Shown: in pieces, positions 261 to 20,910 of the stretch
Layout: each line of letters begins with the position of its first letter
Numbering within the stretch: position 1 is the first letter of the stretch
Source: a virus
Taxonomy: Duplodnaviria; Heunggongvirae; Uroviricota; Caudoviricetes
Reading direction: 5' to 3' (one strand)
Virus record (IMG/VR): IMGVR_UViG_2778261068_000003
Coordinates: 1-43,997 of that record
Length of the DNA stretch: 43,997 bases
Notes under the pieces: generated by a model
What the model was told of the DNA's origin: nothing
What the model saw: the letters and a program-made list of their open reading frames with translations, nothing else
Databases searched by the model: none
Made by a program: the position numbers and the translations under genes

Positions 261-815
261 TTAAAACCGCATCAACCGCTCCACCAGTTGTTCCTTACGG
301 GCAACTATCCAGCCTTGCTGTTCCAGATAAAACTTAAAACGCTCCAGGGTGCACACCATTGCGTCGGCTGGGACTTTTTCTGTGAACTCAATCTGACCGT
401 GGCTATTGAAATGGATCAGCAACGAGCAACCGGCAACTGATGTGGTTTGTGGCGATGCTGGAGGTTGTTTCTTATTGAAATAACAGTCTTCCAGTTTTTC
501 GAACACTTCCCACGCCTGATCGGTTTCCAGCATTTTGGCGTGGCGGGCTGCTCCGCGTTCTGTCCAGAGGATGAGCGAGCGGGTTTTGGGAGATATTTGT
601 GACTCTCTTAAAGATAGTCGCAAATTTTTTAGCTCCTCACCCACAATTTTGAAAAAGTGCTTTCCCTCAACAAAGCGATCCGAGTTGCGTTTGTGATTTT
701 GCTGAATGCGAATTGCTTCTGTACCGTAAAGCTGCGCCAAAAGTTCAGTGGTAATAACAGGGATCTGGTTATGAGTGATCGGGGAGAGAGTTTTAACAGA
801 GATTTGAGTTGTCAT
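261..815 (-). CDS. ORF6N/KilA-N-like DNA-binding domain protein (phage regulatory or antirepressor-like)
   Basis: N-terminal ...IPVITTELLAQLYGTEAIRIQQNHKRNSDRFVEGKHFFKIVGEELKNLR... resembles the ORF6N domain; GAGGG Shine-Dalgarno 6 nt before ATG at 815. Confidence 0.55.
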   Translation of the reverse strand: MTTQISVKTLSPITHNQIPVITTELLAQLYGTEAIRIQQNHKRNSDRFVEGKHFFKIVGEELKNLRLSLRESQISPKTRSLILWTERGAARHAKMLETDQAWEVFEKLEDCYFNKKQPPASPQTTSVAGCSLLIHFNSHGQIEFTEKVPADAMVCTLERFKFYLEQQGWIVARKEQLVERLMRF

Positions 816-12118: not shown

Positions 12119-12306
12119 AAACGATTTGCGGGAAAAGGACAGTTAAGTAAAATCGCTGCGGGTGCTTGAGGCTATCTGTCTCAGGCATGAACACCAACGG
12201 CAGATAGATAAAAGCCCCACCCGACTATAAATCGAAGTGAGGCCCCTATATGCTCGACACATATAGATTGCCTCTTACGGACCGAAAGGTCAAGGAGAAG
12301 CAGGCT

Positions 12307-12462
12307 ATGAAGCAGCAAAAGGCGATGTTAATCGCCCTGATCGTCATCTGTATTACCGTCGTAGTGACGGCACTGGTAACGAGGAAAGATCTCTGCGAGG
12401 TACGAATCCGTACCGGACAGACGGAGGTCGCTGTCTTCACAGCTTACGAATCTGAGGAGTAA
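12307..12462 (+). CDS. hok: Hok/Gef-family type I toxin
   Basis: MKQQKAMLIALIVICITVVVTALVTRKDLCEVRIRTGQTEVAVFTAYESEE matches the Hok family pattern; AAGGAG Shine-Dalgarno; an in-frame upstream extension (12250) is mok-like; stem-loop directly after the stop. Confidence 0.85.
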   Translation: MKQQKAMLIALIVICITVVVTALVTRKDLCEVRIRTGQTEVAVFTAYESEE

Positions 12463-16526: not shown

Positions 16527-17526
16527 ACCCTTTTTTAGATTGATTGTTATGTCTGCGTGAAATACACGCATACACTCAATTTCATTTTTTAACAACACCA
16601 TTCATTGACGCCGTTCCGATCAGGGTTGATATTTATACCTGTTTGATGACGCATGTTGATTACCACCTGTAGTTATTATTGCGATTCAAACGGTGCTGAC
16701 CGTAAGGAAAGCATCCAGAAAAAACGACTGCACACTTTATGGTATGTGCGCAGATTTTGCGTGAAGATTACAGCCACTCTCCTGGGACATCGTCTTCATT
16801 CTGCAACTGTGGCTGGTTGCAGATTACATACCATTTTTTGAGGTGGCACAGTGATGGCGTATTGTCGGTATGTCATGCCGGATGAGATGAAAGCGCAATT
16901 CATTATCACCTGAGGCGATACGTCATCACTCTGCCTCTTTGACTGAATCTGAGGTGAGCCCGCGAGGGGTGGTATCAGGCGTGGTATCACGCATACTGTT
17001 TTTTAGCGGCCAGTATGCCCCGGAATATATCCGGCACCTCGACCTTACTCTCGCGATTGTCTGCTTTTGATATGGTCTGTTTGTATTACCTTTCCGCCAT
17101 TTATATGGCGGTTTTTTTTATGCCGGATATTTACGTCAGTGAATAAAAAAGGGAGCGGGCTATTGGGGAGCCCGCCGGACAAGGTCCATTTATCGGTTCT
17201 GACATTACTGAGCGTGAACGCTGGACTGAAACGCTCAAATATCAGTGGGTCATTAGGAAAGAACTACCTCCCATTGGAGTTCCGGGAGGTGGCTTTTTAA
17301 TATCATGAGAAACTGGCAAAGTAAACATAACTATATGAAAAATATATAGTTTTTAGCTTTTTGCGAACATTTCTGATGTTATCTTCGCCGACTTATTTCA
17401 AAATTACTGTCCGTGATGGTTATCTTTAGAAGATATTTGTTTTGCATATTTTATATTTTGTTGTTTTTTTGCACGACGACAAAGTAACCAAAACTGCCAT
17501 CGGCGGTTTTTTTATATCTGAAAAGA
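16527..17526. repeat. tandem duplicated noncoding module, copy A (~1 kb)
   Basis: Begins AGATTGATTGTTATG, as does copy B at 17527; co-linear with copy B with substitutions and indels; its 3' ~100 bp resembles the pR'/tR' region after Q. Confidence 0.8.
17095..17120 (+). terminator. Rho-independent terminator inside repeat copy A
   Basis: CCGCCATTTATATGGCGG hairpin followed by TTTTTTTT. Confidence 0.6.
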
Positions 17527-18450
17527 GATTGATTGTTATGTCAGTGTGAAATATACGCATACATTCAATTTCATTTTTTAACAACACCATTCATTGACAC
17601 CGTTCCGAACCGGGTTGATATTTATACCAGTTCGATAACGCATGTTGATTACCATCTGTGGTTACTATTGTTATTCGAACAGTTGCGGACCGTAAGGAAT
17701 GCATCCAGAACGGGGGCATAGTGCCACCTGCTAACAAAAAAGCGACTATACATTTTTATGGTATGTGCGCGTGCTTGCGCGGAGGTTACAACCACAACCA
17801 CCTCTCTTTCCTCCCTCCATTCTGTAATAGTGGTTGATTACAGTTTGCATACCATTTTTTTGAGGAGATACAGTGATGGCGTATTGCTGGTCTGTCATGC
17901 CCGATGAGATAAAGCGCGACTCACAATTACTCCGTGGCAGTACGCCATCACTGTATAGCTTCATGCAGAATTTGAGGTGAGCCCGTGAGGGGTGATGCAG
18001 GGAACAGCATCACGCATGCTGTTTTGAGGCAGCAGTATGTCCCGGGATATATCCGGCACCTCAACCAGGTTCTCGCGATTGTCTGCTTTTGATATGGTCT
18101 GTTTGTATTACCTTTCCGCCATTTATATGGCGGTTTTTTATGCCGGATATTTACGTCAGTGAATAAAAAGGGGAGCGGGCTATTGGGGAGCCCGCCGGAC
18201 AAGGTCCATTTATCGGTTCTGACATTACTGAGCGTGAAAGCTGGACTGAAACGCTCTGAAATGTCATTTCAGGTCATACCAGTAAGTAAAGAACAGTCTC
18301 CCGAGGATAGAGGCGGGAGACTGGCTTTTTAATATCATAAGAAATCGCCATGGTAAATATAACTATATGAAAAATATATGGTTTTTAGCTTTTTGCGAAC
18401 GTTTCTGACGTTATCTTCGCCGACTTATTTCAAAATTCCTGTCCGTGATG
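17527..18450. repeat. tandem duplicated noncoding module, copy B
   Basis: Second copy of the same module; ends in the leader of the holin-like gene. Confidence 0.8.
18116..18139 (+). terminator. Rho-independent terminator inside repeat copy B
   Basis: Identical CCGCCATTTATATGGCGG hairpin followed by TTTTTT. Confidence 0.6.
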
Positions 18451-18491: not shown

Positions 18492-18887
18492 ATGCACAGT
18501 TCACTGACCATTACTGGTGCGGTTGCCGCAGGCTCCACCGGAGTCACTCTCTCCACTCTTTTTCCTGAAGCAACTCCGGCGGTGGTGATTTGCTCGCTCG
18601 CCGGAACGGCGCTTTATGTTCTTTCATCCCGCCCGCACAGGGTCTGGAGGCAGATTCTGTTTGCCCTGATTTCTTTTATCGGGGGTATACACAGTGCTGA
18701 AACAGTCTCTGAAATTATCGCGGCGGTGATTAATGCCTGGCTGGTAAAAATTGCGCCGGGTGCATCAGTTCATGTCACGCCCGGGATCGGGGCGCTGGTG
18801 GCTTCAACAATCTGCGTCAGTGTTCTGTTGCGTGTTATGGCGAAATACCAGGATGGCAGGCAGACGAAGAAGGGAGAGGAACAATGA
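18492..18887 (+). CDS. putative holin-like membrane protein
   Basis: Several hydrophobic helices; first gene of the lysis cluster; start placed at 18492 because the upstream in-frame extension lies in the repeat and is interrupted by a stop in copy A; weak Shine-Dalgarno. Confidence 0.45.
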   Translation: MHSSLTITGAVAAGSTGVTLSTLFPEATPAVVICSLAGTALYVLSSRPHRVWRQILFALISFIGGIHSAETVSEIIAAVINAWLVKIAPGASVHVTPGIGALVASTICVSVLLRVMAKYQDGRQTKKGEEQ

Positions 18888-19219
18888 ACTGGGAAAAACT
18901 GGTGCTTTCCGCAAATGCTGTTGTTTGCCTGCTGATAGTACTCCGCCTGATGTTCTATCAGAAAAAGGCGGGCAGCTATCGTTTTATGTACTCCCTGCTT
19001 GCGTGGATGGTGATTGTTGCCGCCGGATGGACAGCAGTACGCATTTTTTATGGTGAATATTCCGGGGCAGATCCGGCAGAGCTTTTTCTGAATTTTTCTT
19101 TCTGTCTGGCTGTCTGGGGAGCTGGCGGAAATATTGCAAAAGCCACTCACTGGAGTGTGCAAAACAGAAAAGTAAAAAGAAGGGGGCAGAGTGAAAAAAA
19201 CGAAAGAGATAATTTTTGA
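18884..19219 (+). CDS. putative holin/antiholin-like membrane protein
   Basis: 111 aa with two or three predicted transmembrane helices and a charged C-terminus; ATG overlaps the upstream stop. Confidence 0.5.
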   Translation: MNWEKLVLSANAVVCLLIVLRLMFYQKKAGSYRFMYSLLAWMVIVAAGWTAVRIFYGEYSGADPAELFLNFSFCLAVWGAGGNIAKATHWSVQNRKVKRRGQSEKNERDNF

Positions 19220-19739
19220 TGCCATCCTGGGAAAAGAGGGCGGCTATGTGGATCACCCTGACGACAAGGGAGGTCCAACAAAGTGGGGCGTGACGCAGAC
19301 GACCGCCCGCGCCCACGGATACCGTGGCGATATGCGCGATTTAACCCGCGAACAGGCACTGGAAATTCTTGAGGCTGATTACTGGTACGGACCACGCTTT
19401 GATCAGGTGGCGGCATTATCCCCTGATATTGCGGCGGAGATGTGCGATACGGGCGTCAACATGGGGCCGACTGTGGCGTCCAGAATGCTTCAGCGCTGGC
19501 TGAACGTATTCAATCTGAGCGGGAAGCTGTATCCCGATATGGACACGGACGGACGCACTGGCCCACGCACGATTAACGCATTACGTGCGTATCTGGAAAA
19601 GCGCGGCCGGGAAGGCGAAATGGTGCTGTTAACAGCACTGAACTGTACTCAGGGCGACCGCTATCTGGAGCTGGCAGAGAAACGGGAGGCTAACGAGTCG
19701 TTTGTCTACGGCTGGATGAAAGAGCGTGTGGCTGTATGA
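19191..19739 (+). CDS. endolysin (GH108-like domain plus PG_binding_3-like domain)
   Basis: ...EGGYVDHPDDKGGPTKWGVTQ... (GH108-like motif) and a C-terminal peptidoglycan-binding-like region; GTG start with AGGGGG Shine-Dalgarno. Confidence 0.85.
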   Translation: MKKTKEIIFDAILGKEGGYVDHPDDKGGPTKWGVTQTTARAHGYRGDMRDLTREQALEILEADYWYGPRFDQVAALSPDIAAEMCDTGVNMGPTVASRMLQRWLNVFNLSGKLYPDMDTDGRTGPRTINALRAYLEKRGREGEMVLLTALNCTQGDRYLELAEKREANESFVYGWMKERVAV

Positions 19740-19879
19740 AGCGAAAACACTGGACACACAGAATGCCGCGAACGGCGGCGAAATGGGCACTGGTAGCGAT
19801 ACTGGTGCCTTTTTTATTGCTCAAAAAACGAAAGAACGGAGGTACGTATGTACGCACTGAAAAAAATTACGGTAACTGA
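19736..19879 (+). CDS. putative small membrane protein (47 aa), possible spanin remnant
   Basis: ATG overlaps the endolysin stop (ATGA); basic N-terminus then hydrophobic WALVAILVPFLLL; below the ORF-track cutoff. Confidence 0.25.
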   Translation: MKRKHWTHRMPRTAAKWALVAILVPFLLLKKRKNGGTYVRTEKNYGN

Positions 19880-20129
19880 AGATGGGCGCCAGGTTGAGGA
19901 AGTGCATGTTCTGGGGGATATGTATCGCCTGGAGTTCTATCCGCGTGACACTCATCTTGCTGCAAAAATTGAGTATTGCCGGGACGGGAATACTCCATGT
20001 ATTCCGGTAGAAAAAGAGGATGAGGCTTACATTACCACACTGACCGGAGACACGGTGCGTTGTATCTGTCGCGGTGACAGTAAAGCCCGGGATGAAATCG
20101 CTAAATGCCGCACTCATACCAGTAAATAA
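19848..20129 (+). CDS. hypothetical protein (93 aa, Cys-rich)
   Basis: GGAGG Shine-Dalgarno 5 nt before ATG; several Cys; last gene of the lysis-region operon. Confidence 0.4.
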   Translation: MYALKKITVTEDGRQVEEVHVLGDMYRLEFYPRDTHLAAKIEYCRDGNTPCIPVEKEDEAYITTLTGDTVRCICRGDSKARDEIAKCRTHTSK

Positions 20130-20249: not shown

Positions 20250-20690
20250 TTAAGAAAGAGCGAGTCCAATTTTGTTGAAGGCCATTTTTACGCCAACAGC
20301 AATTGTTTGCGCTGATAATTTTATAATAGTTTCAGTCGCGCCCGTTTTTATAGCTGCGGCTAACCTGGCCCCTAACGGGAGGTTTTCAGAGTTAATGCTT
20401 TCAGGTATTGCTCTTAAGGCTTCCAGCCCTTTTTCTGTGAGAACAACATTAAAAAAATCAACACCATTTGTGCCTGATGTGGACAGGTAGCCTGTGTTTG
20501 CAAGCCACTGTACAGAATGGAACGCAATTTCAGAATCTGTGCTGATTTCCTGATGTGTAAAATCCAGATAATCAGCACTGGATTCACCAGTAATGCCCTT
20601 GATGCTCAAATCAACAGGTATTGGGAAGGCCTCATACAAAGTGCCGAAGACTTTCCCTGTATATTCATCAAACTTAACGATATTGGACAT
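20250..20690 (-). CDS. hypothetical protein (146 aa), opposite-strand moron at the bor-equivalent locus
   Basis: Minus-strand ORF between lysis genes and cos; no signal peptide or motif recognised; divergent from the small ORF at 20695. Confidence 0.5.
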   Translation of the reverse strand: MSNIVKFDEYTGKVFGTLYEAFPIPVDLSIKGITGESSADYLDFTHQEISTDSEIAFHSVQWLANTGYLSTSGTNGVDFFNVVLTEKGLEALRAIPESINSENLPLGARLAAAIKTGATETIIKLSAQTIAVGVKMAFNKIGLALS

Positions 20691-20694
20691 AAAG

Positions 20695-20910
20695 ATGGAT
20701 AACTCTCTCTATCAAAAAGAAGAAGAAAAAGCCGCTCTGATTAAAGAGCTTCGCAGTGCGATTAAAGCACAATTACGCGGTGATATGGACTGGGTAAGAA
20801 CGCGGGCGTTTTGGGCAGCGCGATTGCCTGGCATACCGAATGAAGTGCTTGCGGAAGCGCTCGCCTCCGCGATCAGTTACGGTGCGGTGATGATGAGGGA
20901 AAGGCGCTGA
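20695..20910 (+). CDS. hypothetical small protein (71 aa)
   Basis: Starts 5 bp from the divergent gene's start; helical, charged; start taken at the internal Met of the 20593 ORF. Confidence 0.4.
   Translation: MDNSLYQKEEEKAALIKELRSAIKAQLRGDMDWVRTRAFWAARLPGIPNEVLAEALASAISYGAVMMRERR

Follow-up and report, generated by a model that had tools for sequence, protein, structure and literature searches.

A truncated phiP27-type lipoprotein gene in the spanin position of the lysis cassette of an Escherichia albertii prophage

We analyzed the lysis cassette of a prophage contained in a DNA stretch of 43,997 nucleotides (IMG/VR virus record IMGVR_UViG_2778261068_000003; this whole stretch is hereafter called the window). 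For positions 18492–20129, an original prediction had described two holin-like membrane proteins and a GH108-type endolysin that are not followed by a typical Rz/Rz1 spanin pair. It is highly probable that this is a lysis cassette of the type found in phage phiP27, in which the gene for a lipoprotein of the family PHROG 7528 was truncated by a microhomology-mediated deletion or illegitimate recombination, and that the function exerted from the spanin slot was lost with it. The open reading frame (ORF) that overlaps the endolysin stop codon retains only the 5΄ part of the lipoprotein gene, a junction is visible within it, and no spanin-like gene is present. The event is ordinary gene decay and did not produce a new kind of spanin. 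The features on which this finding is based are as follows.

19736..19879, plus strand: chimeric ORF of 47 amino acids (aa), with 28 native codons followed by 19 out-of-frame codons
19736..19819, plus strand: retained 5΄ part of a phiP27-type lipoprotein gene (PHROG 7528), 28 codons for the n-region and h-region of the signal peptide
19785..19818, plus strand: terminator-like hairpin (11-pair stem) and T-run within the remnant, from a consensus scan only
19807..19819, plus strand: deletion or recombination junction with the 13-nt microhomology GCCTTTTTTATTG, from DNA alignment

The 47-aa ORF starts at position 19736, its ATG overlapping the TGA of the endolysin gene (as ATGA). A comparison of its product with PHROG 7528 yielded an E value of 1.8e-12, with only residues 1–28 of the 60-residue profile covered, and the retained 5΄ segment showed 95% nucleotide identity to the phiP27 gene and 97–99% to copies in E. 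coli prophages. Full-length homologues in phiP27 and E. coli prophages (51–62 aa) follow the pattern ...AKWALVAILVPF[FL]LVGC, directly continued by VSLDKARQLFDTASQVCEIVDGVRQCMQN, which corresponds to a textbook lipoprotein signal and then a 30-residue mature peptide. The conserved n- and h-region of the family (M-x-R-K-H-W-T-H-R-x-P-R...ALVAILVPFLL) is present in the 47-aa ORF, which agrees with the family through ...VPFLL and then reads LKKRKNGGTYVRTEKNYGN. The VGC of the lipobox is lost, being replaced by LKKRK past the junction, and the mature peptide of ~30 aa with its two further Cys residues is deleted. The last 19 codons read the leader and start of the next gene, which encodes a 93-aa protein, out of frame. 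The resulting product has one hydrophobic stretch, a net charge of +11, an isoelectric point (pI) of 11.5 and no Cys; the ORF was not predicted by the gene caller in any sister contig, and its product is absent from called-gene records. Judged by these alignments, the 47-aa ORF is what remains of the 5΄ end of a phiP27-type lipoprotein gene; it is a pseudogene remnant and not a novel membrane protein. The overlap with the endolysin stop and the single hydrophobic stretch had been recognized correctly in the original prediction, but the stretch had been taken for a transmembrane helix; it is the h-region of a lipoprotein signal peptide and not a transmembrane anchor.

The hairpin at 19785..19818 is native to the signal-peptide coding region. 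Selection at the nucleotide level on the retained 5΄ segment, acting through this hairpin or terminator, was considered and rejected: third-position diversity, computed over 38 distinct lipoprotein gene sequences, was 0.21 in the signal-peptide part and 0.24 in the mature part.

The DNA alignment switches cleanly at GCCTTTTTTATTG, with the lipoprotein gene on the left and the leader of the 93-aa gene on the right. This sequence is found both in codons 24–28 of the lipoprotein gene and in the terminator that precedes the 93-aa gene, where it belongs to the T-tract, and the right side of the junction matches the leader as it is placed after a hairpin-plus-T-tract terminator in relatives. The break falls just before the lipobox Cys, and everything from codon 29 onward is gone. 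In contig L009, the lipoprotein gene, a 68-aa ORF, the terminator and the 93-aa gene follow one another in the same order as in the window, and GCCTTTTTT occurs at positions 1409 and 1839, 430 bp apart, as the only direct repeat of at least 9 nt there. A 430-bp deletion between these repeats reproduces the right-hand junction of the window, although L009 has a small transmembrane gene between the endolysin and lipoprotein genes, which the window lacks. As for the left-hand side, the alignments of intact Citrobacter and Logan cassettes to the window are unbroken from the endolysin gene to position 19818/19819 and then end. The left side of the window, in which the lipoprotein start overlaps the endolysin stop, is a natural arrangement: an intact 60-aa gene shows this ATGA overlap in a Logan contig as well as in Citrobacter prophages. 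A collinear parent in E. coli was also considered; the two-piece matches looked collinear, but their pieces lie in the opposite order, and only L009 is collinear.

We located further junction-bearing contigs by looking up exact copies of the endolysin and of the 93-aa protein. The 144-nt remnant was 100% identical in at least eight further contigs, and one contig with the junction has a different small-terminase gene, with DUF1441 replacing Nu1. Since the remnant is identical in all contigs, including the one with the different small terminase, the results point to a single event, after which the allele was inherited and recombined. None of 5,426 complete E. coli genomes contained the junction, and the exact junction pattern had no match in GTDB species-representative genomes or in IMG/VR. 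Separately, among the junction-sharing E. albertii contigs, a 160-bp patch of the endolysin gene (19493–19655) holds 38 of the 41 differences in 18492–20129; this clustering points to a recombination tract rather than to point mutations.

To cover the rest of the prophage, ORFs in all six frames of the 44-kb window were scanned for a lipobox from every start codon, and no credible lipoprotein signal was found, nor was an embedded Rz1-like lipoprotein ORF. As controls, the script recovered the o-spanins of Yersinia phage vB_YpM_41 and Citrobacter phage Shae_phiSM (the latter of LysC type), Iss/Bor and the phiP27-type lipoprotein. A hydrophobicity scan of all ORFs of at least 45 aa in the window returned only holins, a Hok-like toxin and spurious ORFs, and none with the single N-terminal transmembrane segment and long soluble domain of an i-spanin. 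An ORF with both an N-terminal lipoprotein signal and a C-terminal transmembrane domain, as in a unimolecular spanin, was likewise absent from the window. Both scans thus bear out the observation that no typical Rz/Rz1 pair follows the endolysin, and neither a standard Rz/Rz1 pair nor a unimolecular spanin was found elsewhere in the prophage. The original prediction had left two options. That the spanin function is missing or degenerate agrees with a 47-aa ORF lacking the lipobox Cys and the mature domain, and with the lack of a spanin elsewhere; that an unusual protein serves as the spanin did not hold up, as the 47-aa ORF is a deletion chimera and the 93-aa ORF encodes a protein predicted to be soluble and beta-rich, the cysteines of which are not conserved.

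We propose that the ancestral cassette comprised two holin-family genes, a gene for a soluble GH108 endolysin and, starting on the endolysin stop, a gene for an outer-membrane lipoprotein of ~60 aa. Recombination at GCCTTTTTTATTG would have removed codon 29 onward, including the lipobox Cys and the 30-aa mature peptide, and would have joined the stump to the leader of the next conserved gene, thereby creating the 47-aa chimera. With KKRK directly after the hydrophobic core, export of the chimera would be blocked by the positive-inside rule, and its product could not reach the outer membrane. Upon induction, Q-dependent late transcription would lead to opening of the inner membrane by the holin and destruction of the wall by the muramidase; no phage protein would then actively break the outer membrane, and release would occur by osmotic or shear rupture. 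Induced cells might thus resemble lambda Rz/Rz1 null mutants, being spherical and stabilized by millimolar Mg2+, a prediction that depends on the assumption that the intact lipoprotein is an outer-membrane disruptor.

The intact family comprises 160 clusters at 90% identity (21 at 50%) from Escherichia, Salmonella, Citrobacter, Cronobacter, Yersinia and Lelliottia. Its intact members are 44–111 aa long and lack a C-terminal transmembrane domain. In the lipobox, L-[VA]-G-C, no variation is seen at G and C and little at V29, where some members have A; in the mature peptide, C-x16-C-x8-C, the two Cys residues beyond the lipobox are invariant even where their codons vary. Because these residues are invariant despite synonymous changes, purifying selection appears to act on the intact lipoprotein gene. 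The intact lipoprotein matched no Pfam or NCBIfam family, and its AF2 model was a single long helix of low confidence (predicted local distance difference test (pLDDT) score of 67).

Two holins, a GH108 endolysin and the 60-aa lipoprotein with the ATGA overlap are found in the Logan contig and in Citrobacter prophages, and the lipoprotein gene follows an M15 or GH108 endolysin in C. braakii, Lelliottia, Salmonella, phiP27 and an Actinobacillus phage record; intact cassettes from E. coli likewise have it after the endolysin gene. The ATGA overlap with the endolysin was seen at L018–L022 and at 12 IMG/VR loci. We then surveyed the slot at 80 IMG/VR loci whose endolysin is 84–88% identical to that of the window. 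A phiP27-type lipoprotein lies downstream in 57 of the 80, a canonical i-spanin plus overlapped o-spanin in 19 and both in none, while the remaining 4 have neither or lie on contigs that are too short. Among the 57 lipoprotein loci, the gene abuts the endolysin directly in 12, and a small protein with a C-terminal transmembrane segment (PHROG 4493/1115) is encoded just upstream in 45. This pattern is consistent with the lipoprotein occupying the spanin slot.

Three further observations concern these cassettes. The PHROG 4493/1115 protein is 37–57 aa long, with a C-terminal transmembrane segment and an RWW end (L003 2699–2872, L002 3441–3656, L009 1163–1336); its gene is often stop-start coupled to the lipoprotein gene, and it is absent from the window and from cassettes in which the lipoprotein gene abuts the endolysin gene. 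Toxin genes are inserted inside or beside the cassette in E. coli prophages and phiP27 (L005, L006, L001, L092), LT-II A/B lying between the holins and an M15 endolysin or after a GH108 endolysin, and Stx2e just upstream of the holins. The Actinobacillus phage vB_Apl-pPE4 (L108; PP818812), the record of which is assigned to Actinobacillus pleuropneumoniae, has the order holin, holin, M15 endopeptidase and KilA-N, and at ~1801–1980 it carries an unannotated copy of the lipoprotein gene with a 5΄ end 95% identical to enterobacterial copies.

An assignment of the lipoprotein as a spanin has been published. Kongari et al. 2018 (PMC6139136, supplementary file 5) predicted an o-spanin of phiP27 at 20706–20861, which is the PHROG 7528 lipoprotein, and classified phiP27 as having a separated two-component spanin with a 64-aa i-spanin at 20348–20542; this predicted pair has the shortest periplasmic span in their data set. 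We found that the proposed i-spanin (NC_003356 20348–20542; L001 2171–2365) has a TTG start, belongs to no PHROG family and has no counterpart in other intact cassettes. Moreover, it is antisense to a 90-aa ORF of the conserved PHROG 36812, and the i-spanin call is probably spurious.

This last result is one of several that weigh against a lost spanin function in the window. No credible i-spanin partner for the lipoprotein was found in intact cassettes, and therefore loss of the lipoprotein may have no lysis phenotype. The mature lipoprotein, at 30 aa, is too short to span the periplasm, and no experiment linking the PHROG 7528 lipoprotein to lysis was found in the literature. The 57/19/0 split in the slot survey is confounded by lineage, since P2-like and lambdoid cassettes have different holins, and many of the loci are near-duplicates. 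Several isolates retain the truncated allele, which has also been recombined onto another packaging module; this fits dispensability. As regards the deletion itself, a direct parent, with the lipoprotein gene abutting the endolysin gene and lying upstream of the 93-aa gene in one genome, was not found.

Some of these points raise the possibility that the phiP27-type lipoprotein is encoded by a moron, serving for example lysogenic conversion or superinfection exclusion, and that such cassettes are naturally spanin-less, in which case the truncation would be neutral for lysis and the outer membrane would rupture passively or through an unrecognized factor. The persistence of the truncated allele and the lack of an i-spanin partner in every intact cassette, given that the published one looks spurious, are in line with this account, as are a mature peptide that is not only short but acidic, helical and Pro-free, unlike Rz1, the existence of further broken gene copies (P0197, P0200, P0202, P0207 and P0208), and the clustering of iss/bor, Ivy, LT-II and Stx2e at the same position in relatives. 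However, the lipoprotein start is translationally coupled to the endolysin stop through ATGA in many cassettes, the gene is invariably located after the endolysin gene, whichever the endolysin type, and it never occurs together with canonical spanins in the same slot; purifying selection on the lipobox and the Cys residues also speaks against a moron. We regard this account as a genuine possibility, although an unlikely one on balance.

A related idea is that a stand-alone outer-membrane lipoprotein of ~30 residues represents a third way to fill the spanin slot in temperate phages of enterobacteria, with no inner-membrane partner. On this reading, which we consider tentative and rather doubtful, the helical C-x16-C-x8-C lipoprotein would breach or destabilize the outer membrane without being a fusogen that spans the periplasm. 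Its mode of action would be closer to that of bacteriocin-release or entericidin-type lytic lipoproteins. If this were true, the E. albertii allele in the window would be a natural knockout of that gene.

We also considered whether the 47-aa chimera has gained a disruptin-like role, acting as a cationic membrane-active peptide that attacks the outer membrane from within, as does phiKT gp28. Its 47 aa, net charge of +11 and pI of 11.5 place it within the screening cut-off for disruptins used by Holt et al. (<80 aa, charge ≥+4; bioRxiv 10.1101/515445), it is translationally coupled to the endolysin gene, and the allele is unchanged in at least eight contigs. However, the ORF is a by-product of the deletion, its last 19 residues being encoded by the leader of another gene, read out of frame; the copies do not differ from one another (100% identity) and hence give no evidence of selection; its hydrophobic core resembles that of a signal peptide, in contrast to the hydrophilic amphipathic profile described for gp28; and no gene caller predicted it. 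A disruptin-like role is thus very unlikely.

The next gene downstream was analyzed in the same manner.

19848..20129, plus strand: predicted soluble protein of 93 aa, PHROG 33497 (E 6e-53), with a strong GGAGG ribosome-binding site at 19838–19842

The protein has no signal peptide, lipobox or transmembrane segment. The original prediction had described the ORF as Cys-rich and without a lipoprotein signal, which applies to the copy in the window, with its five Cys residues, but not to the Cys content of the family, as no Cys is conserved across PHROG 33497. The family is confined to Enterobacterales. The AF2 model (pLDDT 88.7) has seven strands and a C-terminal helix; the protein had no match in Pfam or NCBIfam, and Foldseek searches of PDB and BFVD returned nothing with an E value below 0.1. 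The place of the gene varies among relatives: it may precede the lipoprotein gene, follow it or be absent. That this ORF encodes an unusual spanin or another outer-membrane disruptor might be suggested by its position adjoining the lysis genes, its strong ribosome-binding site and the five cysteines in the window copy, but the missing export and membrane signals, the absence of any family-conserved Cys, the confident model of a compact beta protein with a C-terminal helix and the variable position of the gene make this extremely improbable. Because its cysteines are not conserved, and on the strength of the structure model, the protein is predicted to be soluble, beta-rich and not a spanin.

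The lysis genes upstream of the lipoprotein remnant, which had been recognized by the original prediction, were confirmed by Pfam and PHROG matches, and every ORF that it listed in 18492–20129 is present at the coordinates it gave.

18492..18887, plus strand: holin-family membrane protein, multi-transmembrane, 131 aa (PF16931 Phage_holin_8, E 4.3e-11; PHROG 198, E 3e-29)
18884..19219, plus strand: second holin-family protein, type with three transmembrane segments, 111 aa (PF05449 Phage_holin_3_7, E 1.3e-17; PHROG 217)
19191..19739, plus strand: GH108 muramidase endolysin, 182 aa (PF05838, E 8e-27; PF09374, E 5e-25; PHROG 315)

The first holin gene has another possible start at 18378, which would give 169 aa; the sister contigs have the 131-aa call. 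The 111-aa protein, an exact match of which is labelled ‘phage holin family protein [Escherichia albertii]’, is predicted to be a holin or antiholin partner. In the endolysin, the Glyco_hydro_108 catalytic domain and the C-terminal PG_binding_3 domain both score above the Pfam gathering thresholds. No signal or signal-arrest-release (SAR) sequence was found, and its N-terminus is hydrophilic, so that a soluble, holin-dependent endolysin is indicated.

The window holds a whole lambdoid prophage, with the integrase gene (1086–2204) at the left, tail genes further on and host DNA at the right, where cho, nadE and ves show 89.6% identity to E. coli. The Q antiterminator gene sits upstream of the holin and endolysin genes, and every gene of the lambda-type Nu1/A/portal/protease/major-head module and of the contractile tail is full length. 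Exact database copies of the cassette proteins are deposited under Escherichia albertii; this is an otherwise intact-looking lambdoid prophage of that species. This setting bears on the idea that a holin and a hydrolase have been domesticated here as a non-lytic type 10 secretion system (T10SS). Salmonella T10SSs consist of a holin and a peptidoglycan hydrolase and are likewise without spanins (PMC13284979), and in relatives of the cassette, Stx2e or LT-II toxin genes are found within it or next to it. However, the cassette lies between the Q antiterminator gene and full-length packaging, head and tail genes, an adjacent gene for a secreted cargo is absent, and the visible deletion scar accounts for the missing gene; we therefore judge a T10SS to be highly improbable.

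Other parts of the prophage yielded additional observations. Between the Q region and the holin genes, a ~1-kb tandem duplication (16537–17420 and 17526–18450; 78–98% identity in blocks, at a spacing of 989–1032 bp) takes up a 2-kb gap that is poor in ORFs, with terminator-like hairpins in each copy. Upstream of the window holins, where E. coli relatives have tRNA genes, none were found. In the early/nin region, 12160–12462 contains a hok/sok-type type I toxin–antitoxin module, with an Rfam sok match of 105 bits at 12160–12309 and a 70-aa ORF (12250–12462) that has a Hok/Gef-like C-terminal end (MKQQKAMLIALIVICITVVVTALVTRKDLCEVRIRTGQTEVAVFTAYESEE). On the minus strand, 868–1066 has Rfam matches to isrK, to C4 antisense RNA and to the a1/b1 targets of the latter, directly upstream of an ORF6N/antirepressor-like ORF (261–815, minus strand); together they form a c4-ant immunity module of the P1/P7 style, which adjoins the integrase gene on its outer side at the left end of the window.

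These results suggest that the 47-aa ORF is best annotated as a pseudogene, and that an apparently spanin-less cassette is a known type with a deletion scar. In E. albertii prophages, the allele provides a recurrent natural knockout of the phiP27-type lipoprotein. In addition, the only published spanin assignment for phiP27-type cassettes rests on an i-spanin call that fails, and the spanin position of widespread prophage cassettes associated with Stx2e, LT-II and other toxins is left to a 30-residue lipoprotein alone.

Among known systems, the closest is phiP27 itself, in which the predicted o-spanin (NC_003356 20706–20861; PHROG 7528; a singleton o-spanin family in Kongari et al. 2018) is homologous to the window stump over its first 28 residues, occupies the same position at the end of the cassette and follows the same holin pair. 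The phiP27 gene has the lipobox LLVGC and the 30-aa mature C-x16-C-x8-C peptide, whereas the window stump has neither; the o-spanin is itself a bioinformatic prediction, and the proposed i-spanin partner looks spurious. Spanins of the lambda Rz/Rz1 or P2 LysB/LysC type occupy the same slot after a near-identical GH108 endolysin in vB_YpM_41 and Shae_phiSM, where the spanin start overlaps the endolysin stop as the window stump does. In vB_YpM_41 (L024; OR545054), the same holin pair and GH108 endolysin are followed by an unannotated overlapped two-component spanin, with a 92-aa i-spanin at 2510–2788 and a 69-aa o-spanin at 2703–2912 (lipobox LIASC), of which only the first is annotated, as ‘hypothetical’. 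In contrast to this type, the window encodes neither a type-II inner-membrane protein with a coiled-coil domain in the periplasm nor an embedded or overlapped lipoprotein. T1 gp11, a unimolecular spanin, is likewise a single gene in the slot with a lipoprotein signal, as in the intact relatives of the window; the PHROG 7528 family differs in lacking a C-terminal transmembrane domain, and the window copy lacks the lipobox too. The disruptin gp28 of phiKT shares with the 47-aa ORF a small size, a very basic character and a position adjoining the endolysin gene, but the two are not homologous, and the window ORF is a deletion chimera with the hydrophobic core of a signal peptide. Finally, T10SSs, such as the Salmonella TtsA and ChiP systems, resemble the window in pairing a holin with a muramidase in the absence of a functional spanin; the window cassette differs in being embedded in the late operon of a complete prophage, in having no cargo gene, and in having lost its fourth gene through a recent deletion.

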